Origin: Chryseobacterium sp.
GTDB lineage: Bacteria > Bacteroidota > Bacteroidia > Flavobacteriales > Weeksellaceae
DNA length: 64,000 bases
Direction: 5' to 3'
NCBI GenBank assembly: GCA_027492795.1
Contig: JAPUEB010000035.1
Location: 63,221-127,220 of the forward strand
The position numbers and the translations under genes are program-made. The notes below the pieces were generated by a model. The model was given only the letters and a program-made list of their open reading frames with translations. It was not told where the DNA came from and ran no database searches. Shown here piece after piece: positions 4,278-54,530 of this stretch. Numbering within the stretch: the stretch's first letter is position 1; every line of letters starts with the position of its first letter.

Positions 4278-5183
4278 ATGTTAGGAAGACGACAAATTCG
4301 TGAAAAAGTAGTAGAATTTCTATATTCTTATCAGCAAAACCCTGTACCAATAGATGTTCTGGAGAGAAAACTTCTTTCAGAAATTGAAAAAATTTATCAT
4401 CTCTACATTTATCAGCTCAACTTTATGGTTGCCTTGAAAGAGCTTGCCATACAACAAATTGAGATTTCAAAAAACAAATTCATCAAAACAGATGAAACTA
4501 TAAATCCCAACCAAAAATTCATCAGCAACGAAATACTTCAGCAAATTGAAGATAATTCGGAAAGAATAGCATTCACATCCAAACACAAGGAACTTACTTG
4601 GGAGCTACACGATGATTTGCTTGTAAAAACGTTCCAGAGAATGGTGGCGGGGAAAAGGTATCAGGATTTCATGAAGGAAAGTGATGATACTTTTGAAGAA
4701 GGACAAAAATTTATCGGGAAACTTTTTTTAAGATATATTGCCGAAAATGAAGATTTCCACGAGCATTTGGAAGAAAAGGAGCTCAGTTGGGCGGATGATT
4801 TCCATATCTCGAATTCCATGATTCAGAAAACGATTGGATTTATGAAAAAAGATGAGCCAACACACACGCTCATTAAAATGATGAAAGATGAAGAAGATGA
4901 AACATTTGCCAAAAAACTCCTTCGAGAAACCGTTTATAATTGGGAAGAATCTGAAAAGAAACTAGTAGAAAAGCTGGAAAATTGGGATATAGAGAGAATT
5001 TCTTTAATAGACAAAATTATCCTCATTACCGCAATAACCGAACTGGATTATTTTCCGCTCACAGCTTCACGAATTATTATTAATGAATATATTGAAGTTT
5101 CAAAAGTATTTTCAACAGACAAATCCAATATCTTCGTGAACGGAATTTTAGATAAATATACCAAAGAAAAAAATCGAATTTAA
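4278..5183 (+). CDS. nusB: Transcription antitermination factor NusB (long Bacteroidota form)
   Basis: Starts MLGRRQIREKVVEFLY. C-terminal ...IINEYIEVSKVFSTDKSNIFVNGILDK is the NusB signature region. Confidence 0.85.
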   Translation: MLGRRQIREKVVEFLYSYQQNPVPIDVLERKLLSEIEKIYHLYIYQLNFMVALKELAIQQIEISKNKFIKTDETINPNQKFISNEILQQIEDNSERIAFTSKHKELTWELHDDLLVKTFQRMVAGKRYQDFMKESDDTFEEGQKFIGKLFLRYIAENEDFHEHLEEKELSWADDFHISNSMIQKTIGFMKKDEPTHTLIKMMKDEEDETFAKKLLRETVYNWEESEKKLVEKLENWDIERISLIDKIILITAITELDYFPLTASRIIINEYIEVSKVFSTDKSNIFVNGILDKYTKEKNRI

Positions 5184-5710: not shown

Positions 5711-6043
5711 ATGCTAACAATATTTTTACAGGCAGCTCCATCCGGAGACGGAGGAATGACCATGATGCTGATGATGGCGGTAATGTTCGCGGGATTTTAT
5801 TTCCTGATGATTCGACCGCAGATGAGAAAGCAAAAACAAGAAAAAAACTTTCAGGAAGCCCTTAAAGTAGGGCAACGTGTGGTAACAACTTCCGGTTTAC
5901 ACGGTAGAATTGCCCAAATTCAGGAAGACGGTATTGTGCTGGAAACTCTTTCGGGAAAACTGAAATTTGAAAAGGCGGCTATTTCCAGAGAATTTACGCA
6001 GCAGAGATTTCCGGAAGGAGGCGCAAGCGACGAAAAGAAATAA
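5711..6043 (+). CDS. yajC: Preprotein translocase subunit YajC
   Basis: 110 aa. Single TM followed by FYFLMIRPQMRKQK...VGQRVVTTSGLHGRI. Confidence 0.85.
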   Translation: MLTIFLQAAPSGDGGMTMMLMMAVMFAGFYFLMIRPQMRKQKQEKNFQEALKVGQRVVTTSGLHGRIAQIQEDGIVLETLSGKLKFEKAAISREFTQQRFPEGGASDEKK

Positions 6044-6214: not shown

Positions 6215-6934
6215 TTACAAAACTAATCCCTCAAAATTTCTGAAGGCGAGAAGTTTTTCAGTGGTAAAACCTTCTGCAAAATCACAACCTGAAAGCCTGC
6301 CTAAATTTTGGGCGCGGTAAGTAAGACTTTCTAAAAAATCTTTCGTTGCGATTGGAGTTACAGGTTCATTGGAATTTGGATCGTAAAACTGCGTTTTGAA
6401 AGCGAGACAAGCCTCAATTTTTTTATCCATAACATTCGAAATATCTACCACAAAATCTGGTGTTATTTCTTTCCATTGAATATAATGAAAAACCTGTTTC
6501 GGACGCCAAACTTCCTGATTTTTTCCTTCTAGAGAAGTTTCTATTTTCCGAAGTCCCGACAAAAAACAAGCATCCGAAACCAATTTCGAACCTTTCCCGT
6601 GATCCGGATGACGATCTTCTATGGAATTACAAAAAACAATTTCGGGACGGTATTTTCTTATCATTTTCACGACTTTTAGCTGGTGTTCTTCATCGTTTTT
6701 GAAAAAACCATCTCTCATTTCCAGATTTTCCCGATAAGAAATTCCTAATATTTTTGATGATTCCTCTGCTTCAGCTTTACGTGTTTCGTCTGTTCCCCTT
6801 GTTCCCAATTCTCCTTTGGTAAGATCCACTATGGCAACTGTTTTTCCCTCGGAAATAAGTTTCGCAAGCGTTCCGCCACAACCAAGTTCTACATCGTCAG
6901 GATGCGCGCCAAATGCTAATATATCTACTTTCAT
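6215..6934 (-). CDS. bshB1: Bacillithiol biosynthesis deacetylase BshB1 (LmbE/PIG-L family)
   Basis: MKVDILAFGAHPDDVELGCGGT...HPDH motifs. The longer track start (TTG at 6955) falls inside a -7 box. Confidence 0.8.
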   Translation of the reverse strand: MKVDILAFGAHPDDVELGCGGTLAKLISEGKTVAIVDLTKGELGTRGTDETRKAEAEESSKILGISYRENLEMRDGFFKNDEEHQLKVVKMIRKYRPEIVFCNSIEDRHPDHGKGSKLVSDACFLSGLRKIETSLEGKNQEVWRPKQVFHYIQWKEITPDFVVDISNVMDKKIEACLAFKTQFYDPNSNEPVTPIATKDFLESLTYRAQNLGRLSGCDFAEGFTTEKLLAFRNFEGLVL

Positions 6935-7025: not shown

Positions 7026-8699
7026 TTATTTATTAAGCAGTTTATTCAGATTAACTGCATCCGGATAAGTTGGATTCAGCTGTACCGCTTTTGCTGCGTA
7101 ATCTTTAGCTTTCACGATATCCTTTTTCTGGTTGTAGAAAGCTACAAGATAATAGGCATAAGAAAGCGCATCTTTGTTTTGTGCTTGTTCTGTAGGAGTT
7201 TGAGACAATACTGTGTCAATAAATTTTTGGTACGAAGCTTCTGCAGAAGCATCATTCTTCAAATGCTGATAAGCTGAACCTCTCGCGTAGTAAGAATATG
7301 CCCAAGTTGGTGAAATAGAAATCATCTTATCCCAAGTCATAATAGCACCGTTCCAGTTTTCAACCTCTTGATAAGCAGCTCCCAGCTTTACGAGTGCATC
7401 TACATCTTTTGGATTTGCTGCAACTTGCTTTTTCAGAGCTTCCACTGTTGGACTTGTAGGTCCTGCGTTTGCAGCTGAAACATCTGCACCTCCACCTTGC
7501 ATTTTAGCTAATTCCTGCGTCCAGTCTAAGGTTTCGTCCTTTGCGTTTTGAGCAATCTGTATCTTAGCCTGTGCATCCTGCATCATCGCATTCTTTTTAG
7601 CTGCATCTTTTTCATTTTTTGCCAAACCTGCAATTATCAAACCTTCTAAACCTTTATCTGCAGGTACAATCCTTGTTTTATCTACAACTGTATTTGCAAA
7701 AGTATTGAGGTTGGTTTGTGCTTGTGCATAATTACCATCGGCATAATCCAAATATGCTTTTAATTTGAATTTTATAGGATCCTGAACTGCATTAAAAATC
7801 TTGTCTAAAGTAGATCTGGAGTTTGTATAATCCTTGTTTGCAAAATATAATTTTGAAATTTCCAATTGTGTGTAGGGATCTTCATCTGCATATTTTGAAT
7901 AATTAATTAAAGCTTGGGTAGCATTTTGCGGTCTCTGAAATCTCATCTCAAAGGCAGCTAAAGCTTTGTATGCAGGCGCATAAGTAGCATCTGTAGCAAT
8001 AGCTTGTTTAATTTTCTCTTCGGCTTTTTGCCACTGCTGAGCCTGCATCCATAAAGTACCGATTCTGGTATATACCGATGCTTTATTTTTTGCTAATGGC
8101 AAAGCTTTATCATAAGCGGTCATTGCGTTTCCTGCAACCTGTGGACTGTTTGTTAATTTTAAACGATAAGCATCGCCTAATGTATAGTAATAATGTGCGG
8201 GAACACCTTTTTTATAGGCAATTTCTATTGCTTTATTAAGGTATTGAACCGCTAAATCGGGATTACTGTTTTTCGGAAAAAGAACTAAAGCTTCGCCCGC
8301 TCTGAACAATACTTCTGCATCTTTTTCTTTAGAATCTTTTACGATATTTTGGATTTCTGTTACTGCACTTTTATCACCTTTTCCCAGTCTTATGCTTGCG
8401 ATACCAACTTTATTGACTAAGCTTTTGCTACTTGCAGCCAAACCTTTCCTAAAGTTTTCTTCTGCTTTCACAAAATCTGGTTCGTTTTGCTTGAGGTAGG
8501 TATTGCCTAAATAAAAGTAATTTTCTGCGGATGGCGATTTCACCACCATTTCCTCAAAATTTTTCTTTGCTTTTGCATATTTATCACTATCCATACTTGC
8601 GATTCCTTCTTCCAAAGTTTGCGCAAAAGTGAGATTGGCAAAAAATGCTACCGCAACCCCTAAAACGATTTTCTTTGATACATTCATTATGTTTTTCAT
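7026..8699 (-). CDS. Secreted tetratricopeptide (TPR) repeat protein
   Basis: 557 aa. Signal peptide, then many A/Y/L-rich 34-aa TPR-like repeats (..YYLGNTYL.., ..AYSYYARGSAYQ..). Confidence 0.75.
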   Translation of the reverse strand: MKNIMNVSKKIVLGVAVAFFANLTFAQTLEEGIASMDSDKYAKAKKNFEEMVVKSPSAENYFYLGNTYLKQNEPDFVKAEENFRKGLAASSKSLVNKVGIASIRLGKGDKSAVTEIQNIVKDSKEKDAEVLFRAGEALVLFPKNSNPDLAVQYLNKAIEIAYKKGVPAHYYYTLGDAYRLKLTNSPQVAGNAMTAYDKALPLAKNKASVYTRIGTLWMQAQQWQKAEEKIKQAIATDATYAPAYKALAAFEMRFQRPQNATQALINYSKYADEDPYTQLEISKLYFANKDYTNSRSTLDKIFNAVQDPIKFKLKAYLDYADGNYAQAQTNLNTFANTVVDKTRIVPADKGLEGLIIAGLAKNEKDAAKKNAMMQDAQAKIQIAQNAKDETLDWTQELAKMQGGGADVSAANAGPTSPTVEALKKQVAANPKDVDALVKLGAAYQEVENWNGAIMTWDKMISISPTWAYSYYARGSAYQHLKNDASAEASYQKFIDTVLSQTPTEQAQNKDALSYAYYLVAFYNQKKDIVKAKDYAAKAVQLNPTYPDAVNLNKLLNK

Positions 8700-13149: not shown

Positions 13150-16100
13150 TCAGGAAACAATATTAATGATTTTTTTCGGAACAATAATTACTTTTTTCGG
13201 TGAATTTCCAGCCAGTTGATTCTTTACCCTTTCATCACTCATCGCTGCCTCTTCTATTTGTTTGGCATCAAAATCTGCCGGAAGCGCCAATTTGAAACGC
13301 ATTTTTCCATTGAAACTTACCGGATATTCTATTTCATCTTCCTCCAAATAAGATTCATTTAAGATTGGGAAAGGCTCAAATTCAACACTTGTTTCATGGC
13401 CAAGCAAACTCCACAATTCCTCGCAAATGTGTGGTGCGTAAGGAGAAATGATGATTGCTAAAGGTTCTAAAATTTTTCTTTTGTTGCATTTTAGCTTTTG
13501 AAGTTCGTTTACGGCAATCATAAATTGCGAAACGGAAGTGTTAAAAGAAAAATGTTCTATATCAAAAGTAAATTTCTTGATTAAAGTATGTAGAATTTTG
13601 TACTCCTCTTTCGTTGGTTCCTCATCTGAAACTGAAAACGTATCACCATCGAAATACAGGTTATAGAATTTCTTCAAAAATCCGTAAACTCCGCTTAAAC
13701 CTTGCGTGTTCCAAGGTTTTGACTGTTCCAAAGGTCCCAGAAACATTTCATATAAACGCAGACAATCTGCACCGTATTCTTCGCAGATATCGTCGGGATT
13801 GACGACGTTGTATTTGGATTTGGACATTTTTTCGACTTCTCTTTCAGTAATGTATTTTCCCTCTTCCAAAATAAATTCTGCATCTGCGAATTCCTTTCTC
13901 CAATTTTTGAATTTCTCAATATCCAATTCATCGGAAGTTCCTTTTAATAAAGAAACATCTACGTGAATTTTTTGGAAAGAATAAGTACCGGGAAATAATT
14001 CTTTATTAAAATGACTAATATTGTCTTTAAATAATATTTTTTCAATCTCACCCCATATTTCACGATCGTATTTCCCTAATACTTCATTTTGTTTTAAATT
14101 AAATTCTAATGTTTCCTGAGATAGCTCTTTACCCTTAATTATTGGTCTTACTGATTTAAAATATTTAATTAATCTAGGATCAACATATTTATTTAACACA
14201 ATATGCTCTAAAGCTCCAAAGTCATTTTCCTTTGACGGAATTCTGTAATTAACCACTAAACGATAAACAAACGCACTCATTCCCAAAATCATTCCCTGAT
14301 TAATCAATTTTTTGAAAGGCTCTTCCTGATGGATGTAACCTCTGTCCTTCAAAAACATATTCCAAAAACGGGAATACAGCAAATGTCCTGTTGCGTGTTC
14401 GCTTCCGCCAATATACAAATCAACCTGTCCCCAATAATCTGTTAAATTTTTATCCGCAAAATTTTCAGAATTTTTCGGATCCATATATCTTAAAAAATAC
14501 CACGAACTTCCAGCCCAACCCGGCATTGTGGAAAGTTCAATGGGAAATATCCTCTCCCCAACCCTCTCCAAAGGAGAGGGGGGCGGAACTACCTTTTCAG
14601 AAAGCTCGTCCCAATACCACGCTTTAGCGTTTCCAAGTGGCGGATCGCCGTCTTCGGTTGGCAAATATTTTTCAACTTCTGGAAGTTCCAAAGGAAGCGC
14701 AGAAACTGGCAAAGTGTAAGGCATTTCATCTTTATAATAGACAGGTACTGGTTCTCCCCAATATCTTTGGCGTGAAAAAATAGCATCGCGCTGACGGTAA
14801 TTCGTTGTTCCGTGACCAATTCCGCGGTTTTCTATTTCGTCAATGATTTTCGTTTTGGCGGTTTCATAATCCAATCCATCCAAAAATTCTGAATTTACAC
14901 AGACAGAATCTTTGGAATCGTACGATTCTTCCTGAATATCATTATCATTTTTAATGACATTTACGATGTCCAAGCCGAATTTTTTCGCAAATCTGTGGTC
15001 GCGTTCGTCGTGTGCAGGAACTGCCATTACAGCACCAGTTCCGTAACCCATCAAAACATAATCGGAAATATAAATTGGAATTTCTTTTTCTGTAAAAGGA
15101 TTGATTGCATAACTTCCCGTGAATGCTCCGGAAACGGTTTTCACATCCGACATTCTGTCGCGCTCGGTTTTTTTGGAAGTTTCTTCTACATATTTTTCAA
15201 CTTCCGCTTTTTGTGAATCGGTTGTTATTTTTTCAACCAAAGGATTTTCTGGTGCCAAAACCATAAATGTTGCGCCGAAAATAGTGTCGGGACGAGTTGT
15301 GAAAACGGTGATCACATTCCCCCTTTCCCCCAAAGGGGAGAGCTGTGGCAAATTATTCTGGTTGTATTGTGGTTGATTCTCTGGGTGGATTGTGGATATT
15401 TCTTGGACTTCTGATTTTTTTTCTACAAAATCTGGTCTTGATTCTAACTTTACTACAATTTTTTCGATAACATTTTCATTATCACCGATTACTTCCTCAT
15501 TTCTGAATCTAACTACTTCAAAGCCTTCAGATTCCAAAATTTTCGTTCTTTCTTCATCTGAAATTTGTTGCTCCTCCTCATCGTGGTAACCGCCATCAAC
15601 TTCAATAATTAATCTTTTTGATAAACACACAAAATCAACAATAAAATTGTCAATTAGGTGTTGTCTCCTGAATTTATAATCTAATTTTTTAGATTTTAAT
15701 TGCTCCCAAAGAATACTTTCTGCCACAGTTGGATTATCTCTATTTTCCTGTGCTTTTTTAATTAATAGTGCAGAATTATTTCCTCCTGTTAAATATCCAA
15801 ATTTTTGAGCATCACTTTTTAAATCAGCATTTTTTAAAGACTCATTATTAGATTCATTTTTTAGAGACTCAATATTAGATTCATTTTGTAGAAATTCATT
15901 ATTAGAGACATTCTCCCCTTTGGGGGAAAGGGGGAATTTAACCTGCGCTCCCATCGATTTCCCAATCCAATATTCCTGCGAATCTTTCAACGGTTGTGGC
16001 CAATCGATTTTTTGTAAACCTTGCAATAGTCTTTCAGAATAGGCGGTAATTCTCATACTCCATTGCATCATTTTTTTCTGAAAAACTGGGAAGCCGCCAC

Positions 16101-16800
16101 GTTCAGATTTTCCGTCTTTTACCTCATCATTTGCGAGAACTGTTCCTAATGCAGGACACCAATTCACAGTTGTTTCTGCTCGGAAAGCCAATCTGTAATT
16201 CAATAAAGTATCTTGTTTATCGAGTTCTGAAGCGTTGTTCCATTCTTCTGCCGTGAAATTTAATTTTTCGGTTTCTGCAGCGTGAAGATTTTCCGTTCCG
16301 TGTTCTTCAAAATATTTGATTAAAGTAGAAATCGGTTCTGCTTTATCCGTCGTTTTATTGTACCACGAATGAAATAATTCAATAAAAATCCATTGCGTCC
16401 ATTTGTAATACGATGCATCGGAAGTTCTTACTTCGCGATTCCAATCGAATGAAAAACCGATTTTTCTTAATTGTTCTTCGTATCTGGTAATATTTTGTTC
16501 GGTGGTAATTGCAGGATGTTGACCGGTTTGAATGGCGTATTGTTCCGCAGGAAGTCCGAAAGAATCGTAACCAATCGGATGCAAAACATTAAATCCTTGA
16601 TGCCGCTTAAATCTCGCATAAATATCGCTCGCAATATAACCAAGCGGATGACCAACATGAAGCCCCGCTCCTGAAGGATACGGAAACATATCCAAAACGT
16701 AGAATTTTGGTTTATCTGTTGCGTCAGAAGTTTTATAAGTTTGGTTGTCTTCCCAATATTTCTGCCACTTTTTTTCTATCTGCTGATGATTGTAGAACAT
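13150..16800 (-). CDS. leuS: Leucine--tRNA ligase, about 300 aa longer than usual because of in-frame insertions
   Basis: HIGH-type motif (GLHVGHPLGY), TTRPDT editing-domain motif, KMSKS, and a full-length continuous ORF of 1216 aa. Confidence 0.9.
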   Translation of the reverse strand: MFYNHQQIEKKWQKYWEDNQTYKTSDATDKPKFYVLDMFPYPSGAGLHVGHPLGYIASDIYARFKRHQGFNVLHPIGYDSFGLPAEQYAIQTGQHPAITTEQNITRYEEQLRKIGFSFDWNREVRTSDASYYKWTQWIFIELFHSWYNKTTDKAEPISTLIKYFEEHGTENLHAAETEKLNFTAEEWNNASELDKQDTLLNYRLAFRAETTVNWCPALGTVLANDEVKDGKSERGGFPVFQKKMMQWSMRITAYSERLLQGLQKIDWPQPLKDSQEYWIGKSMGAQVKFPLSPKGENVSNNEFLQNESNIESLKNESNNESLKNADLKSDAQKFGYLTGGNNSALLIKKAQENRDNPTVAESILWEQLKSKKLDYKFRRQHLIDNFIVDFVCLSKRLIIEVDGGYHDEEEQQISDEERTKILESEGFEVVRFRNEEVIGDNENVIEKIVVKLESRPDFVEKKSEVQEISTIHPENQPQYNQNNLPQLSPLGERGNVITVFTTRPDTIFGATFMVLAPENPLVEKITTDSQKAEVEKYVEETSKKTERDRMSDVKTVSGAFTGSYAINPFTEKEIPIYISDYVLMGYGTGAVMAVPAHDERDHRFAKKFGLDIVNVIKNDNDIQEESYDSKDSVCVNSEFLDGLDYETAKTKIIDEIENRGIGHGTTNYRQRDAIFSRQRYWGEPVPVYYKDEMPYTLPVSALPLELPEVEKYLPTEDGDPPLGNAKAWYWDELSEKVVPPPSPLERVGERIFPIELSTMPGWAGSSWYFLRYMDPKNSENFADKNLTDYWGQVDLYIGGSEHATGHLLYSRFWNMFLKDRGYIHQEEPFKKLINQGMILGMSAFVYRLVVNYRIPSKENDFGALEHIVLNKYVDPRLIKYFKSVRPIIKGKELSQETLEFNLKQNEVLGKYDREIWGEIEKILFKDNISHFNKELFPGTYSFQKIHVDVSLLKGTSDELDIEKFKNWRKEFADAEFILEEGKYITEREVEKMSKSKYNVVNPDDICEEYGADCLRLYEMFLGPLEQSKPWNTQGLSGVYGFLKKFYNLYFDGDTFSVSDEEPTKEEYKILHTLIKKFTFDIEHFSFNTSVSQFMIAVNELQKLKCNKRKILEPLAIIISPYAPHICEELWSLLGHETSVEFEPFPILNESYLEEDEIEYPVSFNGKMRFKLALPADFDAKQIEEAAMSDERVKNQLAGNSPKKVIIVPKKIINIVS
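14549..14583. repeat. Short palindromic element (CCTCTCC-n-CCCTCTCC-aaa-GGAGAGGG) inside the leuS coding frame
   Basis: atcctctccccaaccctctccaaaggagaggg. The same 32 nt with 1 mismatch occurs intergenically at 47769-47800. Confidence 0.8.
15316..15937 (-). mobile_element. TIR-bounded cassette carrying a DUF559 (Vsr-like PD-(D/E)XK) endonuclease domain, in frame within leuS
   Basis: Perfect 26-bp inverted repeats: attccccctttcccccaaaggggaga at 15316-15341 and its exact reverse complement at 15912-15937. The interior encodes ESILWEQLKSKKLDYKFRRQHLIDNFIVDFVCLSKRLIIEVDGGYHD...GFEVVRFRNEEV (about 15455-15725). Confidence 0.8.
15830..15910. repeat. 3 x 27-bp tandem repeat inside the leuS cassette
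   Basis: Units at 15830-15856, 15857-15883 and 15884-15910. They encode (E[SF]L[KQ]NESN[NI]) x3. Confidence 0.8.
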
Positions 16801-26120: not shown

Positions 26121-26236
26121 GTATTTTTTTATAAATGATGAATAATAGTTGATGAATGATGTAAAAATTTATCCCAAAAGTAAAGATTTTGAAATAAAAT
26201 TTTCAGATATTGAGAAATTAGCTTTGATGATTTTCA

Positions 26237-26290
26237 ATCCTCCAGCGACAAGTCGCAAGAGGTTAACATTGTGTCGCGCTCCGCGCGAAA
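26237..26290 (+). repeat. 54-57-nt intergenic repeat family (TCCTCCAGCGACAAGTCGC...), copy 1
   Basis: atcctccagcgacaagtcgcaagaggttaacattgtgtcgcgctccgcgcgaaa. Contains gcgac-aa-gtcgc and tcgcg-ctc-cgcga hairpins. Confidence 0.85.
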
Positions 26291-30459: not shown

Positions 30460-30627
30460 GATTACACAAAAAGCCTGAAGTTTTTTCACGAAGAACTCAA
30501 AGTGTTTTTATTCACAACCCTTTCAGCGTTTCAAATCGCTGAAAGGGTTTTTTGTTAAAGACCAAATCATAATTATTGAATTCAAGAACTCACGCAATGC
30601 AATATATTTGTGCATTAGCGGCATAAA

Positions 30628-30682
30628 ATCCTCCAGCGACAAGTCGCGAGAGGTTAACAATGTGTCTCGCTCCGTGCGAACC
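30628..30682 (+). repeat. TCCTCCAGCGACAAGTCGC repeat family, copy 2
   Basis: atcctccagcgacaagtcgcgagaggttaacaatgtgtctcgctccgtgcgaacc. Confidence 0.85.
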
Positions 30683-30863
30683 AAAAATGCTGATTTTTTT
30701 TTGTAAATTTTGTTATTCTTGAACTTCTCTGCGTTACATATGAAAAATGTCATTTTTTCAAAGAAATTACAATTCAGGCATTATTATTGATTTTCAAAAA
30801 TCAAATTCCTTATCAATTTTCTATTGATTATCAAAATTTGTTTCACTTTTAAAAAACACAATT

Positions 30864-38085: not shown

Positions 38086-40533
38086 TCAAATCTCAAATTT
38101 CAAATTGTTTAAATAATAATTCAATTGCCCGAAACTGATATTCTCATCATTTGGAGAGAGTTTTTCGTGAAAATGTAAATTAAATTTTTCGCCCAAAACG
38201 TCAATCGCCATATCTACTAATAATGCATTTTGCCAAACGCCACCGGAAAAAGCCAAGTGTTTTTCCTCTGTCACACTGAGCTTGTCAAAGTGTCTATCGA
38301 CAATTTTTTCAATAAATTTAATTAAAGTGTTGTGAAAATTTAGTCCGATTTCTCCGGCGTTTTTTCCTGAAAGTTTTTCATCTAAAATTTTATCAAAAAG
38401 TTTTTTTGTCGGAAGATTTTCAGAAGTTTCGTTTTCTAAATAATCAGTTAATCTGTGAACATCTGTGCAAAATTTTTCCTGAGAAATTTTCTCCAACCAC
38501 ATTGCAGATTCTCCTTCAAAATAAATTGGTTTTTCATAGCCCAAAACAAAAGCAACAGCATCAAAAAAACGTCCCATTGATGAAGTTTTGATTTCCGATT
38601 TATCAATGAGATTGGTGTAGATTTTCCATTCGTTTTCGTCAAAGAATTTTTTAAAAAAAATTAGATTTCGCACCTTCGGCGCTCCGCAATTCACGCCCTC
38701 ATCTTTCATTGGGCTTTGCCCAATGCTGTTGATTTCCGCCACTTCGTGGCTCAAATTGTGTTCATCAACCTTTTTGTTAAAGAAAATTGAAAGTGCGGAA
38801 ATTTTTGGTGTTTTGGACATTTTATCGCCTAAAATCCAAGCGAAATTTTCTAATTGTGAGGTTCGTGTTATTTTTGGATGTCGCACCTTCGGCGCTCCGC
38901 AATTCTCGTCCTCAATTTTCATTGGTCTTTGCCCAATGCTGTTGATTATCGCCACTTTGTGGCTGTTTTCTAAACTTTCAATTTCTGAATTTTCATACAT
39001 AAAAAATTCGCCGCCCCAAATTTCTGTTTCAGTTCCGAAACCGATGCCGTCCCAAATTATACCGAGAACTTTTTCTTTTTCCCAAAGTTTTTTTTCGCCT
39101 AAAATGGAAGCGAAATGTGCTTTGTGATGTTGGATTTTTTGGTTGCTCACAGATTTCCACAGATTTCCACAGATTTTTTGATTTTCATATCGTGGATGTA
39201 GGTCTGAAAGAATAAGATTTGGTTGAAAATTGAAAATTTTTTGATATGATTTTATCGTGTTTTCAAATCTTTCGTAGGTTTCAAAATTGGCCAAATCGCC
39301 GATGTATTCTGAAATATAAACGTGATTGTTTGGAACAACGGCGAACGTGTTTTTCAAATCTCCACCCAAACATAAAATTTTATTCTTTTGATAATTTTTT
39401 TCTGACAATTCATCCGCGAAAAAATAGTTTGGCGCAAAACCTCGTGAACGTCGGAAAATGATTTTTTGTTGGTGTTTTGGAGAAAATTTTATCACAGAAT
39501 CATCTTGTGGATGTTGAATTTCCAAAGTATTGTGCAAGAAAAAATCGGCGATTTTCCATAAAATAGTTTCGGCTTCTTCTGTGGTGGAACAAATCGGCGA
39601 ACCGTGAAAATTTCCGCTGGTTGCGATGAGCGGTTTTCCGAAAACTTTGGAAATGAGTTTCAGCGTTCCGGAATACGGAAACATTGCGCCAATCGTGTTC
39701 ATATTTGGCGAAATTTCTTCTATTGCCAAATCTTTTTTGTCTTTGATTTTTGTAACGATAATCGGACTTTCTGAAGACTTGAAATGCTGGATTTGTAGTT
39801 CGGAAACTTCTAAATATTCCTGCATTTTTTCAATTCCTGAAAACAAAACCGCGAAAGGTTTTGTTGGTCTGCGTTTGCCTTTTCGCAGTTCTGAAACGGC
39901 TTCGGGATTGGTTGCATCACACATTAATAAATAGCCTGCGGTATTTTTCAAAGCAATAATTTTCCCTTTGGCTAATTCTTCGGCTAATTTTTCAAAAATT
40001 TGTTTGTTTGTGCCTTTGAAATCGTTTCCCTGATGGTCTTTTAACCAAATTTGAATGCCACATTTCGGACAGGAATTGGTTTGGGAATGAAAACGAACGT
40101 CATCAGGATTTTTATATTCTTCCAAACAATTTGGACACATTTTGAACACTTCAATCGCCGTGTTTTCACGTTCAAAAGGGAATTTTTTCGCGATGGAATA
40201 ACGTGGTCCACATTGTGTGCAAGTCGTGAAAGGATAAAAATAGCGGGGATTTTTCTCGTCAAAAATTTCGGTTTCGCAATTTTCGCAGGTTGCAAAATCG
40301 GGCGTCAATGGAATGTCAACAACGATGTCTTTTTTCGTGGGTTTGATGAAGAAATTTTCAAAAACTTCGGTGGTTGCTATATCTTTGATTTCGGAGAAAA
40401 TGATTTCGGAAGATTTGGGTTTTCGTTCGTGAATTGCTTTGAAAAATGCGTAAGAACCTTCGCCTTGACAAATAATGATGACGCCCAATTCGTCATTTGA
40501 AACGTAACCTTTCAGTCCGTATTCTTCTGCCAA
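38086..40533 (-). CDS. hypF: Carbamoyltransferase HypF. The coding frame actually stays open to 40612, and three repeat insertions lie in frame
   Basis: Zn-finger CxxC pairs (CENC..CTQCGPRY, CPNC..CPKCG), YrdC-like and Kae1-like domains. The acylphosphatase motif GRVQGVGFRPF lies upstream of the track's TTG start. Confidence 0.85.
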   Translation of the reverse strand: MAEEYGLKGYVSNDELGVIIICQGEGSYAFFKAIHERKPKSSEIIFSEIKDIATTEVFENFFIKPTKKDIVVDIPLTPDFATCENCETEIFDEKNPRYFYPFTTCTQCGPRYSIAKKFPFERENTAIEVFKMCPNCLEEYKNPDDVRFHSQTNSCPKCGIQIWLKDHQGNDFKGTNKQIFEKLAEELAKGKIIALKNTAGYLLMCDATNPEAVSELRKGKRRPTKPFAVLFSGIEKMQEYLEVSELQIQHFKSSESPIIVTKIKDKKDLAIEEISPNMNTIGAMFPYSGTLKLISKVFGKPLIATSGNFHGSPICSTTEEAETILWKIADFFLHNTLEIQHPQDDSVIKFSPKHQQKIIFRRSRGFAPNYFFADELSEKNYQKNKILCLGGDLKNTFAVVPNNHVYISEYIGDLANFETYERFENTIKSYQKIFNFQPNLILSDLHPRYENQKICGNLWKSVSNQKIQHHKAHFASILGEKKLWEKEKVLGIIWDGIGFGTETEIWGGEFFMYENSEIESLENSHKVAIINSIGQRPMKIEDENCGAPKVRHPKITRTSQLENFAWILGDKMSKTPKISALSIFFNKKVDEHNLSHEVAEINSIGQSPMKDEGVNCGAPKVRNLIFFKKFFDENEWKIYTNLIDKSEIKTSSMGRFFDAVAFVLGYEKPIYFEGESAMWLEKISQEKFCTDVHRLTDYLENETSENLPTKKLFDKILDEKLSGKNAGEIGLNFHNTLIKFIEKIVDRHFDKLSVTEEKHLAFSGGVWQNALLVDMAIDVLGEKFNLHFHEKLSPNDENISFGQLNYYLNNLKFEI
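38668..38751 (-). repeat. 84-bp palindromic element, copy A, in frame in hypF
   Basis: tcgcaccttcggcgctccgcaattcacgccctcatctttcattgggctttgcccaatgctgttgatttccgccacttcgtggct. Encodes SHEVAEINSIGQSPMKDEGVNCGAPKVR. Confidence 0.85.
38881..38964 (-). repeat. 84-bp palindromic element, copy B, in frame in hypF
   Basis: About 90% identical to copy A and in the same orientation. Encodes SHKVAIINSIGQRPMKIEDENCGAPKVR. Confidence 0.85.
39146..39175. repeat. CACAGATTT-type tandem repeat inside hypF
   Basis: ctcacagatttccacagatttccacagatt. Related to the arms of the inverted repeat at 40889-40980. Confidence 0.7.
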
Positions 40534-40608
40534 ATTGAAAATAAATGGGCGAAAACCTACACCTTGAACGCGCCCTGAAATATGGATTTCTGTTGTTTTG
40601 ATGATAAT

Positions 40609-40755
40609 TTTTTAAACGCAAAGAGCGCAAAGATTTTTTTAAATGTTTGAAAATATTTTTAAGTTCGCAAATCGTTGATTCGCTGATTCCTCTAAAAATA
40701 ATAAAAATTTCAGAGGCAAAGATTCATCTAAAGATGAATTGCAATGTTCGCAAAG
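40609..40755. repeat. CGCAAAG-family element, copy 1 (abuts the hypF 5' end)
   Basis: ttttttaaacgcaaagagcgcaaagattttttta...caaagattcatctaaagatgaattgc..cgcaaag. Both ends are shared with 41507-41606. Confidence 0.75.
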
Positions 40756-40983: not shown

Positions 40984-41571
40984 TTAATTTTTTCTAATTT
41001 CATTAACCAATTCCAAAACCATTTCCGTGACTTTAGGGATGGCTGCAGCGACTTTCGGGGATAATTCTAAATACATCGGTTCCATTTTGGAAATCGTGAC
41101 GGTGTAAAGATAAATGTTCGGCATTTTTTCCATAAAGGTCAGAATATCAACCATATCTTTGAGCCCGAAATTGTGTCCGCTTAATGAAACGGGGAAATCT
41201 TCGGAAAATTTTGGTTTTAAAAGCGTGATGCTTCCTTCTTCTTTTCCGTCCATTGTTGCATCTACAATGATGACGTGTTCGTGACTTTCAATGTAGGGAA
41301 CCAAAGAAAAACCGCCAGTTCCCCCGTCCATAAAAGTTATTTTTTCGGGAAATTTTGTGGTGTCCAAATTTTTGATGAATTGAACGCCAATTCCTTCGTC
41401 GCCCATTAAATAATTGCCGATTCCGAGAATGAGGATGTTGTTTCCGTCGGAATGGAAGGAATCTGTGGTGTATTGAAATGTTTCTGTGTTTTTTTCCAAT
41501 TCTATATTTTTTAAACGCAAAGAGCGCAAAGGTTTTTTTATAATTTCTTGAAAATATTTTAAGATAAACAA
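40984..41571 (-). CDS. hyaD: [NiFe] hydrogenase maturation endopeptidase (HyaD/HupD family). Start uncertain
   Basis: ILILGIGNYLMGDEGIGV and ..IIVDAT.. motifs. The N-terminal about 25 aa of the track ORF are a translation of the CGCAAAG repeat. Confidence 0.8.
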   Translation of the reverse strand: MFILKYFQEIIKKPLRSLRLKNIELEKNTETFQYTTDSFHSDGNNILILGIGNYLMGDEGIGVQFIKNLDTTKFPEKITFMDGGTGGFSLVPYIESHEHVIIVDATMDGKEEGSITLLKPKFSEDFPVSLSGHNFGLKDMVDILTFMEKMPNIYLYTVTISKMEPMYLELSPKVAAAIPKVTEMVLELVNEIRKN

Positions 41572-46450: not shown

Positions 46451-47272
46451 ATGTGTTCAACTTGCGGTTGTAGTGCCAATGAAAAAGGCATCACTTTAAC
46501 AAAAATGGGCGAAAATCATCACGTTCACGTAGGAAATGACGGACATACACATTCGCACGAACATTCCCACGATGAACATTATCACGACCACGACCATTCC
46601 CACGAACATCACCATCATCACGGCGAAACCAATATTGTGGAATTAGAAAAAAATATCCTTCATCAAAATCAATTGGGTGCAGAACGAAACCGTGGATTTT
46701 TTGAGGCTTTAAATATTTTCGCGATGAATTTGGTAAGTTCGCCAGGTTCGGGAAAAACATCACTTTTGGAAAAAACCATCGCCGATTTGAAAAATGAAAT
46801 TGAATTTTCTGTAATTGAAGGCGACCAACAAACCACGAACGACGCTGAAAGAATTCACGCTCTGAATGTTCCTGTGCTACAAATCAACACCGGAAAAGGT
46901 TGCCATTTGGATTCGGAAATGATTGCAAAATCTTTGAAAGAACTCAAACCAAAGCAAAATTCCATTTTAATGATTGAAAATGTGGGAAATTTAGTTTGTC
47001 CAGCAATGTTTGATTTGGGTGAAAATCAACGTGTTGTCATTATTTCAACAACTGAAGGTGAAGACAAACCTTTGAAATATCCCGATATGTTTTACGGCTC
47101 GCAAATTTGTATTATTAATAAAATAGATTTGTTGCCTTACCTTAAATTTGATGTTGAAAAATTGAAAGAAAACGCCAGAAAAGTTAATCCAAACTTACAG
47201 TTTTTTGAGGTTTCATCAATTTCGGGAGAAGGAATGGAAAAATGGTATGATTATTTAAAAGGTCAATTGTGA
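46451..47272 (+). CDS. hypB: Hydrogenase nickel incorporation GTPase HypB
   Basis: N-terminal CxxC and a His-rich tract (HSHEHSHDEHYHDHDHSHEHHHHH). P-loop SSPGSGKTS. ENVGNLVCP. Confidence 0.9.
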   Translation: MCSTCGCSANEKGITLTKMGENHHVHVGNDGHTHSHEHSHDEHYHDHDHSHEHHHHHGETNIVELEKNILHQNQLGAERNRGFFEALNIFAMNLVSSPGSGKTSLLEKTIADLKNEIEFSVIEGDQQTTNDAERIHALNVPVLQINTGKGCHLDSEMIAKSLKELKPKQNSILMIENVGNLVCPAMFDLGENQRVVIISTTEGEDKPLKYPDMFYGSQICIINKIDLLPYLKFDVEKLKENARKVNPNLQFFEVSSISGEGMEKWYDYLKGQL

Positions 47273-47314
47273 ATTCGCTTCGCTGTGAATAGTGAATATT
47301 TGCAATAAAAAATT

Positions 47315-47474
47315 AACCACAAAAGGAACAAAAGAATTGATGCTGTTTTAAGGATTACAAAAGAATACAAAAGTTTAGAAATCAAAGATTTCTATTTTGT
47401 GAAATTTTAAAACGCAATATATTCCATCTTTGATTGCTTCGTACCTCGCAAAGACTCTTTTGTGACTTTTGTAT
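47315..47474. repeat. CACAAAAG-family inverted-repeat element in the hypB-hypC spacer
   Basis: aaccacaaaaggaacaaaag and ttacaaaagaatacaaaagt face ctcttttgtgacttttgtat. Related to 32857-33035. Confidence 0.5.
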
Positions 47475-47513
47475 TTTAAAAAAAATAGAACTTTTGGTTT
47501 AAAAACAAAACTT

Positions 47514-47768
47514 ATGTGTTTAGCAATCCCAGGAAAATTAGAAAGCATCACGACCAAGCTCGACGAAACCTTCCGTATTGGAAGCGTTGATTTTGAAGGC
47601 ATCAAAAAGGAAGTCAATCTCGCATTGGTTCCCGAAGCGAAAATTGGCGACTACGTTTTGGTTCACGTTGGTGCCGCAATTGGAATTATTGATGAAGAAG
47701 AAGCCCAAAAAACAATGGACGCGCTGAAATTAATGGGCGAAGATTTGGAATTGGATTCGGAATCCTAA
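47514..47768 (+). CDS. hypC: Hydrogenase assembly chaperone HypC
   Basis: Starts MCLAIPGKL (essential Cys2), so the longer track ORF start is rejected. Confidence 0.9.
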   Translation: MCLAIPGKLESITTKLDETFRIGSVDFEGIKKEVNLALVPEAKIGDYVLVHVGAAIGIIDEEEAQKTMDALKLMGEDLELDSES

Positions 47769-47800
47769 ATCCTCTCCCTAACCCTCTCCAAAGGAGAGGG
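47769..47800. repeat. Short palindromic element, twin of the one inside leuS
   Basis: atcctctccctaaccctctccaaaggagaggg matches 14549-14580 at 31 of 32 positions. Confidence 0.8.
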
Positions 47801-47964
47801 AACGATTACGCTCCAGTTTTGAAAATAGAACTAAAAATGTAAAAATTATATTTTTTAAAAACAGAACACTCGCATTTAATTTTAGAATTTTTGAAATTTA
47901 GTTTAAAAAATATCACACAATCATAAAACGTACGAAGTCCTTCTCCTTCTGAGAAGGATTTAGG

Positions 47965-48972
47965 ATGAGGCTTATGGAATCAATCAACCTGCAACACGGA
48001 AGTGGTGGCGAAAAGCAAACAGAACTTCTTAACAATCTGATTTTCAAAATTTTAGATAATGAAATTCTGAACCAAAAACACGACGGTGCTTTTCTGAATC
48101 TTTCCGGAAAATTGGCTTTTTCCACCGACAGTTTTGTGGTTTCGCCGATATTTTTTAAAGGTGGAAACATTGGAGAACTCGCAGTTTTTGGAACAGTAAA
48201 TGACGTTTCAATGTGTGGTGCAGAACCGAATTATTTGTCGCTTTCATTCATTATTGAAGAAGGTTTTTCGATGGAAGATTTTCAAAAAATCATCAATTCC
48301 ATAAAAATTGCATCAGATAAAGCGCAGGTAAAAATCGTAACGGGCGATACAAAAGTTGTGGAGCGTGGAAAAGGCGATAAAATCTACATCAACACGTCGG
48401 GAATTGGCACGGTTTACGAAAATTCTAAAATCGGAATTCAATATATCAAACCAAACCAAAGCATCATCATCAACGCGGGAATTGCTTCTCACGGAATGGC
48501 GATTATGAGCGAAAGAGAAGGTTTGAAATTTGATTCTGAAATTCTCAGCGACACCAAAAACCTCAATTTTGAAGTCAAAAAATTAATAGAAAATTTCGGA
48601 GAAAAAATACATTTTTTGCGTGATGCAACAAGAGGAGGAGTAGCGTCCGTTCTCAACGAAATTACTTCCGAAAGCAACCTCGGAATTCATCTTTTTGAAG
48701 AAAAAATATTTGTAGAAAAACAAGTGCGAAGCGCTTGTGAACTTCTCGGCTTAGACCCAATGTATGTTGCAAATGAAGGCGTTTTTCTTTGTGTTTGCGA
48801 TGATGAAATTGCCGATGAAGTTTTAGAAATTCTAAAAATAGTAAATTCTCACGCTTCAAAAATTGGTTTCATTACAGAAGAACACGCAGGAAAAGTAATT
48901 ATGGAAAGTGCTTTTGGTGGAAAACGCGTGGTAAACCCTTTGATTGGAGAGCAGTTGCCGAGGATTTGTTAA
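47965..48972 (+). CDS. hypE: Hydrogenase expression/formation protein HypE
   Basis: ..LQHGSGG.., AIR-synthase-like fold, C-terminal PRIC. An alternative ATG lies at 47974. Confidence 0.9.
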   Translation: MRLMESINLQHGSGGEKQTELLNNLIFKILDNEILNQKHDGAFLNLSGKLAFSTDSFVVSPIFFKGGNIGELAVFGTVNDVSMCGAEPNYLSLSFIIEEGFSMEDFQKIINSIKIASDKAQVKIVTGDTKVVERGKGDKIYINTSGIGTVYENSKIGIQYIKPNQSIIINAGIASHGMAIMSEREGLKFDSEILSDTKNLNFEVKKLIENFGEKIHFLRDATRGGVASVLNEITSESNLGIHLFEEKIFVEKQVRSACELLGLDPMYVANEGVFLCVCDDEIADEVLEILKIVNSHASKIGFITEEHAGKVIMESAFGGKRVVNPLIGEQLPRIC

Positions 48973-53766: not shown

Positions 53767-53823
53767 GTCCTCCAGCGACAAGTCGCAAGAGGTTAACAAT
53801 TGTGTCGCGCTCCGCGCGAAACC
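53767..53823 (+). repeat. TCCTCCAGCGACAAGTCGC repeat family, copy 3
   Basis: gtcctccagcgacaagtcgcaagaggttaacaattgtgtcgcgctccgcgcgaaacc. Confidence 0.85.
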
Positions 53824-53831
53824 AAAGATCG

Positions 53832-54530
53832 CTAATTTTTATCAAAAAGATGAAACTCTTTGGTGAGTTCAAGATATTGGTCCGAGTAGTTTCTCGGACT
53901 TTTTTCTATCACAAAATCTTCTTCAACTAAATTTTTCGGTGAATGCGAAAATTCCACAATATTTCTTTTTAAAATACCATCTTTAATTCCGTAAATATTG
54001 ATTTTTCGGATTAATTTTAAATTAAACTTTTGAGAAATTTTACAAAAATCTTCGGTAGATTCAGAAGGAATAATCACTGAAAAAACTCCTTTGCTCGATA
54101 AAAGTTCGGCAGATTTTGAAATTAGATTTTCAAAACTTAACTCCACTTTTTGTCTTGCCAAAACATCTTTCTCTGAAGAATTTTCTTCAAAATAGGGTGG
54201 GTTGGAAATGATCAAATCAAATTTTTCATCCGTTTGAAAGTTTTTGAAATCTTGGTGCAAAACCTTTAATTTATCAGAAAAAATTGAATTGGTAAAGTTT
54301 TCTGAAGCGAGATTTGCAGCAATTTTATCGATTTCCAAAGCCAAAATATTTGCAAAAGGATTTCTTTGCGCCAACATTAGGGAAACCAGCCCTGCTCCCG
54401 TTCCCACCTCCAAAATTTTTGAGGAATTTTCAACAGATGACAATGCTCCAAGCAAAACGCCGTCCGTTCCTACACGAAAAACTTTCTTTAATTGTTGAAT
54501 TGTAAACTTTTGAAAACGAAAAGGTTTCAT
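53832..54530 (-). CDS. tRNA1(Val) (adenine37-N6)-methyltransferase (TrmN6/YfiC-like)
   Basis: 232 aa. ILEVGTGAGL SAM motif and the NPPY catalytic motif (ISNPPYF). Confidence 0.8.
   Translation of the reverse strand: MKPFRFQKFTIQQLKKVFRVGTDGVLLGALSSVENSSKILEVGTGAGLVSLMLAQRNPFANILALEIDKIAANLASENFTNSIFSDKLKVLHQDFKNFQTDEKFDLIISNPPYFEENSSEKDVLARQKVELSFENLISKSAELLSSKGVFSVIIPSESTEDFCKISQKFNLKLIRKINIYGIKDGILKRNIVEFSHSPKNLVEEDFVIEKSPRNYSDQYLELTKEFHLFDKN

Follow-up and report, generated by a model that had tools for sequence, protein, structure and literature searches.

We analysed 64,000 nt of a Chryseobacterium sp. genome (GenBank: GCA_027492795.1, contig JAPUEB010000035.1, positions 63,221 to 127,220), a stretch referred to here as the window, in which a 32-nt sequence occurs once inside a tRNA synthetase gene and once between genes. 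The first copy, ATCCTCTCCCCAACCCTCTCCAAAGGAGAGGG (14549-14580, plus strand), lies in frame within leuS (13150-16800, minus strand), which encodes a leucyl-tRNA synthetase (LeuRS) of 1216 aa (TIGR00396, E-value 8e-270). The second copy (47769-47800, plus strand) is intergenic and begins at the first base after hypC (47469-47768, plus strand; Pfam: PF01455, E-value 9e-26), whose TAA stop codon occupies 47766-47768; no inverted partner follows downstream. The two copies are identical at 31 of 32 positions, the sole mismatch being C/T at position 11, and the hypC-adjacent copy is the only other match to the 32-mer in the window when up to three mismatches are allowed. An earlier note on this DNA had described the pair, the position of the twin directly after the hypC stop codon and the in-frame translation of the leuS copy, all of which was recovered. 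Besides this single 32-nt unit, which we call a solo module, leuS hosts a complete cassette built around a DUF559 nuclease domain, about 730 nt from the 32-mer. Hairpin-type modules in the window number four, three of which are found inside leuS.

The 32-mer reads CCTCTCC-CCAAC-CCTCTCC-AAA-GGAGAGG on the plus strand, with two direct heptamers followed by an inverted one. The earlier note called it a 32-nt palindromic element; it does form a hairpin, but only 19 nt, CCCTCTCC AAA GGAGAGGG, are palindromic and build the 8-bp stem, and the rest adds the heptamer CCTCTCC a third time, as a direct copy. In their 46-nt contexts both copies have a DNA hairpin with a minimum free energy of about -9 to -10 kcal/mol (z -2.8 to -4.1), and they are the only perfect GC-rich hairpins with 8-bp stems in the window, of which the G+C content is 35.9%. 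By direct reading, the T-variant of the 32-mer, which is the variant of the window, is free of stop codons in all six frames. Reading through it on the minus strand, leuS gives VVPPPSPLERVGERIFPIELSTMPGWAGSSWYF; in this sense the module is in the 'right-end' orientation, with the hairpin followed by the G-rich third unit, and is translated PSPLERVGER. Chance similarity, or an ancestral LeuRS peptide that resembles intergenic sequence, is favoured only by the shortness of the match and is scarcely credible, being refuted by three results: none of 100 dinucleotide-preserving shuffles contained a match to the 32-mer, 12 LeuRS relatives have an unrelated peptide at the site, and the same 24-mer core is present in at least 120 stretches of other genomes.

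The DUF559 cassette of leuS spans about 207 codons (15316-15937, minus strand) and is preceded by ..GAQVKF and followed by VITVFTTRPDT, which places it at the entry of the CP1 editing domain. Its left terminal module TTCCCCCTTTCCCCCAAAGGGGAGA (15912-15937, minus strand; translated PLSPKGE) and its right terminal module TCTCCCCTTTGGGGGAAAGGGGGAA (15316-15341, minus strand; translated LSPLGERG) are a perfect 26-nt inverted repeat and share the unit-spacer-unit-loop-complement layout of the 32-mer. The DUF559 domain itself, a Vsr-like PD-(D/E)xK nuclease (15445-15759, minus strand), covers LeuRS residues 348-452 and positions 5-108 of the 109 positions of the profile (Pfam: PF04480, E-value 6.6e-34). 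It matches PDB entry 3hrl with an E-value of 5e-20 and 3r3p, which is I-Bth0305I and was deposited as 'Mobile intron protein', with an E-value of 7e-4. All family-invariant residues are kept, namely D60, E71, D73, G74, H77, D86 and R89 in the numbering of the 136-aa query (LeuRS residues 330-465), and the equivalent columns were also identified in long host proteins. No other DUF559 copy was found in the 64-kb window, and at NCBI these LeuRS proteins are labelled plainly 'leucine--tRNA ligase'.

When the window is compared with K. beijingensis, the DUF559 core shows a nonsynonymous divergence (dN) of 0.10, the same as that of the host gene (0.109), and a proportion of synonymous differences (pS) of 0.73, so that synonymous sites are saturated. 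The embedded nuclease is thus under purifying selection and has been co-inherited with leuS. The linker between the left module and DUF559 holds a tandem 27-nt (9-aa) repeat, NESNIESLK / NESNNESLK (about 15830-15885, minus strand), which is absent from the K. beijingensis cassette.

Inteins are recognised by a Hint domain, an N-terminal Cys or Ser and a C-terminal His-Asn followed by Cys, Ser or Thr. In the window LeuRS no Hint domain was detected, as Pfam gives aminoacyl-tRNA synthetase (aaRS) domains, DUF559 and MTES_1575 only, and the cassette junctions, where KF is followed by PLSPKGE and LGERGN by VITV, show no splice-junction residues. Thus the cassette is not an intein, and judging from the sequence it is apparently unspliced and kept in the mature LeuRS.

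The 32-mer is itself found as the end of such cassettes, which the earlier note had missed together with the cassette in the same leuS and the replacement of native codons described below. In C. taeanense leuS (L001), a DUF559 insert at the cassette site of the window has the left end GTCCTCACCCCAACCCTCTCCAAAGGAGAGGG and the right end CCCTCTCCTCGGGAGAGGGATTTAGGGAGAGGAT, which are the 32-mer sequence (30 of 32 positions identical) and its inverted copy. The cassette of a Bergeyella metagenome-assembled genome (MAG; L204) ends in perfect inverted repeats of 38 nt that are made of a module of the same type. Such a module also adjoins a DUF559 domain that lies in frame within an IcmF-like fused methylmalonyl-CoA mutase of 1319 aa (L010, 2014-5970), and an IleRS gene (L034, 4615-7998) carries an in-frame DUF559 and, 743 nt downstream in the same open reading frame (ORF), a solo module. 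In precisely the loop occupied by the solo copy in the window, two LeuRS fragments (P0246 and P0151) have an entire DUF559 cassette. Their right flank, PSPLVERGQGVR-ETNTMPGYAGSSWYF, compares with PSPLERVGERI-FPIELSTMPGW of the window, so the solo copy has the orientation and the loop of the right flank of these cassettes. Likewise, one site in MiaB is occupied by a full cassette in P0183 and by a module doublet in L107.

LeuRS relatives of 934-1215 aa were found by search in the Weeksellaceae genera Kaistella, Chryseobacterium, Cloacibacterium and Bergeyella, those without inserts being 934-963 aa long; among the matches listed were 39 near-identical LeuRS clusters of Kaistella. In an alignment of 16 LeuRS sequences, 12 relatives read VV-S[TV]DLIDNxTV-FP where the window reads VV-PPPSPLERVGERI-FP. 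According to this alignment and the DNA of L001, L002 and L003, the 39-nt block encoding PPPSPLERVGERI (14548-14586, minus strand) replaces the 30 nt for S[TV]DLIDNxTV of the orthologues. It consists of the module and six extra bases (CCGCCC), and the net gain at the site is three codons. The closest orthologue by sequence (P0061 in L002, 86% identical in the alignment) has neither the solo module nor the cassette, and its empty-site DNA is TTTGAGACCGAAAACGGCGAAGAACACATTGAAGTC. As the 12 relatives carry another peptide and 39 nt stand for 30 nt, the solo element in leuS is lineage-specific and is a replacement, not a clean insertion. The suggestion of the earlier note that some 12-15 residues would be absent from LeuRS orthologues therefore stands in part: the element is missing from the closest orthologues, but it took the place of native codons. 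The relatives did not encode the same peptide by unrelated DNA, and the core of the 32-mer has further copies in other genomes.

Ahead of its KMSKS motif, the window LeuRS has another insert of about 100 aa, VVNYRIPSKEN...FPGTYSFQK (residues about 845-945, roughly 13965-14265); it is present in P0051 and P0052 and absent from the 934-963 aa forms, and no hairpin modules were seen at its borders in the window leuS.

The site at the CP1 entry (site 1) is empty in some orthologues (937 aa) and filled in others. The host LeuRS proteins are 80-90% identical to one another, whereas their DUF559 cores fall into two lineages with 45-55% identity between them. Lineage A, with TCCCCC-type modules, comprises the window, K. 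beijingensis, C. suipulveris and Cloacibacterium, and lineage B, with CCCTCTCC-type modules, comprises C. taeanense, Bergeyella and K. palustris; two Kaistella species thus have different DUF559 lineages at one leuS site. Because each lineage comes with its own module type at the same site, these sequence comparisons argue for more than one independent invasion of site 1, with nuclease and module travelling together. Presence and absence at one precise site, with independent lineages, is the pattern of a homing endonuclease.

The leuS gene of the Bergeyella MAG (L204, 5001-8387) has four separate insertions. Two are solo modules, one near the N-terminus (hairpin 5104-5120) and one just ahead of KMSKS (hairpin 7654-7670). 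Of the others, one is the DUF559 cassette with its 38-nt inverted ends (hairpins at 5930-5950 and at 6363-6383) and one is a doublet of modules in the same loop as the solo copy of the window (hairpins at 7101-7114 and at 7153-7169). No modules were found in the 10 kb surrounding this gene. With three of the four modules of the window and four insertions in L204, leuS looks like a hot spot for modules and cassettes, and the solo copies within single leuS genes belong to several different module types.

The distribution of the 32-nt module was studied by searching species-representative genomes for its exact 24-nt core, CCYAACCCTCTCCAAAGGAGAGGG, which was found in at least 120 stretches; all counts from this search are lower bounds, and the fractions given below refer to the matches listed. 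The core occurs in Flavobacterium, Mucilaginibacter, Chitinophaga, Paludibacter, Bacteroides, Prevotellaceae, Ignavibacteria, Chlorobiota and one Saccharibacteria MAG. The aligned copies have the consensus [g/a]CCTC[A/T]CCC[C/T]AACCCTCTCCAAAGGAGAGGG[ag/ct], and the information content falls at -6 and +2 relative to the core, defining a sharp 32-nt unit with unrelated, AT-rich flanks. No target-site duplication above permutation expectation was detected for 7 x 5 border offsets and k = 3-6. Solo copies dominate, since 105 of the 116 classifiable copies have no inverted partner within 1.5 kb, while eight belong to doublets with a spacing of 20-74 nt, mostly in Mucilaginibacter, and three have a partner at 197-651 nt.

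Of 122 copies, 48 are spanned by a stop-free frame of 150 codons or more, compared with 84% of random positions, indicating that the module is mostly intergenic or located at gene ends, and many copies adjoin stop codons. About 17 of the 122 copies (about 14%) are deep in frame inside ORFs. Their hosts include ValRS, at a site homologous to LeuRS site 1, HtpG, a RecD-like helicase, MiaB, HemC, AsnB and IspG, and the translations are LTPTLSKGEG, SPQPSPKER, PSPLERVGxR or SLSFGEGWGE, depending on frame and strand. The view of the earlier note that the 32-mer is a mobile palindromic repeat tolerating in-frame insertion is supported by these copies together with the orthologues that lack the element, its mobility being deduced from the distribution.

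The position behind hypC could also suggest that the hairpin is a host cis-element, either a stabiliser or terminator at the transcript end or a protein-binding site, and that the leuS copy is incidental. Such a role would agree with the stable, GC-rich 8-bp hairpin immediately 3' of a stop codon and with the many copies at gene ends in other genomes. We nevertheless consider it improbable: no Rfam family matched the 32-mer at the gathering score, the whole window yielding one tRNA only, and the leuS copy is absent from orthologues. Moreover, copies occur in both orientations and in several frames of proteins that are not related to each other, and they also form the inverted ends of nuclease cassettes. 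An intrinsic terminator was rejected, as no T-run follows the hairpin on either strand. In the window (46451-48972) the hyp genes are ordered hypB, hypC, a 196-nt spacer with the module and a hypE-like gene; hypD is absent between hypC and the hypE-like gene.

Starting from the nuclease, we searched the window DUF559 domain without a profile against 1.84 billion cluster representatives and obtained 23,507 matches with an E-value of at most 1e-3. Among the best 150 of these 23,507, 68 proteins have at least 300 aa, and DUF559 is internal in nearly all of them. The 68 long proteins contain 100 different co-occurring Pfam families, among them class I aaRS (eight), GT2 (seven), SpoIIE (six), Type ISP (five), DegT (three) and chorismate synthase (two). 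Host motifs resume beyond the insert, as in LeuRS (NWIGRSEGAE...FTTRPDT) and in SpoIIE (DFYW...AADCTGHGV), and the peptides at the junctions, such as PLSPKGE, LSSGEGSGVR, PPLEGLGEV and LQGGAGGRL, are of the module type.

In seven SpoIIE-type phosphatases (P0133, P0142, P0171, P0191, P0231, P0256 and P0261), each a cluster at the 50% identity level, the cassette is found at one position, between DFYW and AADCTGHGV, explained either by an insertion of ancient date or by one site having been targeted repeatedly. Four other proteins (P0121, P0122, P0157 and P0176) are made up of two or three tandem DUF559 domains, unlike the embedded single-domain cassettes.

A metagenome scan gave at least 528 confirmed DUF559 loci, of which 80 were kept. 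In 46 of the 80 loci the DUF559 frame stays open on each side for 60 codons or more, and an inverted-repeat score of at least 14 between the flanks was found in 29 of 79 loci, compared with 3.5% of mismatched-locus pairs. Among the 75 loci with full flanks, a C-rich hairpin module is located upstream in 56, an inverted module downstream in 59 and modules on both sides in 49, against 3.7% in control windows of the same loci. The modules at DUF559 loci have 23 different stem sequences, so the architecture of the module is conserved and its sequence is variable. The association runs from DUF559 to the modules and not from the modules to DUF559: the expectation that every module copy flanks a DUF559 gene was rejected, with only one of 122 listed copies of the 24-mer core touching a DUF559 ORF. 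Phages were also rejected as the vector, with only two weak DUF559 matches in 50,697 phage records.

We therefore favour the reading that both 32-mers of the window are solo modules in the sense of single-ended, non-autonomous derivatives of the terminal hairpin module of a DUF559 cassette, and give it a probability of roughly 60%. A full cassette consists of a C-rich unit, 3-5 nt, a second C-rich unit, a loop of 3-4 nt and the G-rich complement, then the DUF559 part as a coding segment without an ORF of its own and with an open frame, and then the inverted module. It lies in surface loops of host genes, in the frame and on the strand of the host, and would be translated within the host protein, with the modules serving as linkers rich in Pro, Ser, Gly and Glu, so it should need neither its own promoter nor splicing. 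The Vsr/I-Bth0305I-like nuclease might make the break that starts the copying of the cassette into an empty site, a homing-like process that leaves no target-site duplication. Solo modules may then arise when copying is aborted after one end, or through later loss of the cassette by deletion. The hypC-adjacent copy would be a neutral intergenic insertion, and the leuS copy was probably tolerated because the 32-mer has no stop in six frames, because the exchange of 39 for 30 nt is a multiple of three and because the loop, which is occupied by full cassettes in other species, is variable. An origin of the solo copies by recombination between the two hairpins of a cassette was rejected: a full palindrome of 45 nt (unit-hairpin-unit') would be expected, unlike the leuS and hypC copies and the consensus.

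Several points weigh against this derivation from cassettes. Solo copies far outnumber cassettes in the distribution described above, and their dominance fits a self-moving module at least as well. The two copies of the window differ at one of 32 positions, yet no cassette of their module type is found in the 64 kb, and the cassette that resides in leuS has another module type; two independent decays to near-identical solo copies are not parsimonious. Furthermore, nuclease activity, a cleavage site and transfer are putative for every member of the family.

Most of these points would be expected if the 32-nt module were itself mobile and were moved or copied in trans, as in repetitive extragenic palindromes (REPs) and their doublets (REPINs). 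DUF559 would then sit between inverted modules as a REP-associated tyrosine transposase (RAYT) sits between REPs, and the leuS and hypC copies would be primary insertions. The doublets, the absence of a target-site duplication and the many copies that adjoin stop codons, as REPs do (PMC3733652), also fit such a module. On balance we find this, the main alternative, less likely. The module lacks a GTAG or CGTC tag, the window showed no Y1 transposase, and solo copies, doublets and full cassettes share common host sites, namely LeuRS site 2 and the site in MiaB. The several module types found solo within one leuS look like repeated invasions by different cassettes. For nucleases of the PD-(D/E)xK restriction fold, moreover, we know of no strand-transfer activity.

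The hairpin-bounded DUF559 cassettes could represent a previously undescribed class of mobile element, a suggestion that we hold tentatively and put a little below even odds. Such an element would be inserted in frame and retained in the mature protein without an intron or intein, would exploit the host promoter and, as a safe haven, the essentiality of the host gene, and would release single-end modules of 32 nt as non-autonomous offspring. The 32-mer would be the smallest trace of a phylum-wide system that remodels loops of class I aaRS and about 100 other families. The searchable literature yielded no account of DUF559 cassettes, nor of hairpin repeats lying in frame in Bacteroidota, although they may have been described earlier elsewhere.

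Other repeats are present in the window. A second, unrelated family of about 54-73 nt, TCCTCCAGCGACAAGTCGCAAGAGGTTAACA(T)TGTGTCGCGCTCCGCGCGAAA, has three copies that are 89-98% identical and apparently intergenic (26236-26290, 30627-30698 and 53768-53840), each with two small hairpins, GCGACAAGTCGC and TCGCGCTCCGCGCGA. Two more direct-repeat pairs with 89-91% identity were found at 38661-38751 / 38874-38964 and at 40607-40663 / 41506-41563.

If correct, the proposed cassettes would mean that a selfish nuclease gene can reside in an essential gene in a third manner, different from introns and inteins, which is to stay as an extra domain in a tolerant loop. They would explain many unannotated length differences and odd peptides rich in Pro, Ser, Gly and Glu in Bacteroidota proteins, and would give a testable role to the large orphan family DUF559, with its 23,507 matched representative clusters. 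They would also map naturally permissive insertion sites in LeuRS, IleRS, ValRS, MiaB and SpoIIE phosphatases, and may offer a structure- or sequence-specific nuclease together with its hairpin for study. The entry of short palindromic repeats such as REPs and Rickettsia palindromic elements (RPEs) into coding sequences becomes testable as well, as the candidate enzyme and the repeat are physically linked.

The module can be compared with several known systems. Short mobile repeats are reportedly also present in heterocyst-forming cyanobacteria, where small dispersed repeats of about 20-30 nt are said to be able to form hairpins and to occur inside genes and other repeats. To our knowledge they differ from the module in phylum and sequence, and we know of no nuclease cassette associated with them.

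The MITEs of bacteria (miniature inverted-repeat transposable elements), such as Correia/NEMIS, ERIC, Nezha and others, are 50-500 bp long, derive from DDE-type insertion sequences and have target-site duplications (PMC10969869). Like MITEs, the module is short and non-autonomous, in its doublet form is bounded by inverted repeats and occasionally makes in-frame fusions. Unlike them, it is mostly single-ended and has no detectable target-site duplication, and it is thus not a MITE.

VSR, DUF559 and 3r3p belong to one PD-(D/E)xK clade (PMC3424549). The last of these, I-Bth0305I, is described as a Vsr-like homing endonuclease residing in a group I intron (PDB: 3r3p; PMC2677866; Taylor et al. 2011, as cited in PMC3424549), and the match between the two nucleases reported above points to a homologous fold, the relatedness expected of a homing endonuclease. 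Like inteins and introns with homing endonucleases, the cassette places a selfish nuclease gene in conserved and often essential genes, with presence and absence at one site. Unlike inteins, it lacks a Hint domain and splice-junction residues, and unlike both inteins and introns its ends are hairpin inverted repeats.

RPE-1 to RPE-10 are given in the reviews that summarise them as about 100-150 bp long, restricted to Rickettsia and without a known enzyme (Ogata et al. 2000/2002, as cited in PMC10969869 and PMC3733652). Like RPEs, the module is a dispersed palindromic repeat with many copies in frame in unrelated housekeeping genes, translated as loop peptides in an otherwise intact host protein; in-frame residence in many unrelated ORFs, which characterises RPEs, is seen in the deep copies counted above. 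It differs in having 32 nt, in occurring across Bacteroidota and neighbouring phyla and in doubling as the terminal inverted repeat of a nuclease cassette. By length and host phylum, and thus by description, it is outside the RPE sequence families.

REPs and REPINs with their RAYT transposases (PMC3116915, PMC3733652) share more features with the module. Both are GC-rich hairpins of 20-40 nt that occur as singlets and inverted doublets, often just 3' of stop codons and with no target-site duplication, and both have a presumed cognate enzyme gene between two inverted copies. With its 32 nt, its 8-bp stem and its listed copies, the module corresponds to the definition of a REP as a dispersed, mostly extragenic, imperfect palindrome of 20-40 nt. 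Neither a GTAG nor a CGTC tetranucleotide is present at the module end in the consensus, and no RAYT/Y1 transposase was seen in the window, so the module does not belong to the REP/RAYT system. Unlike in that system, the enzyme gene is a Vsr-like PD-(D/E)xK nuclease (DUF559), flanked by modules at 49 of 75 loci, and not a Y1 (IS200/IS605-type) transposase. Furthermore, gene and modules commonly lie in frame within host genes, an arrangement not described for RAYTs. The behaviour of the module is closest to that of RPEs and of REP/REPIN-RAYT systems, and it also resembles that of homing endonucleases carried by inteins and introns.

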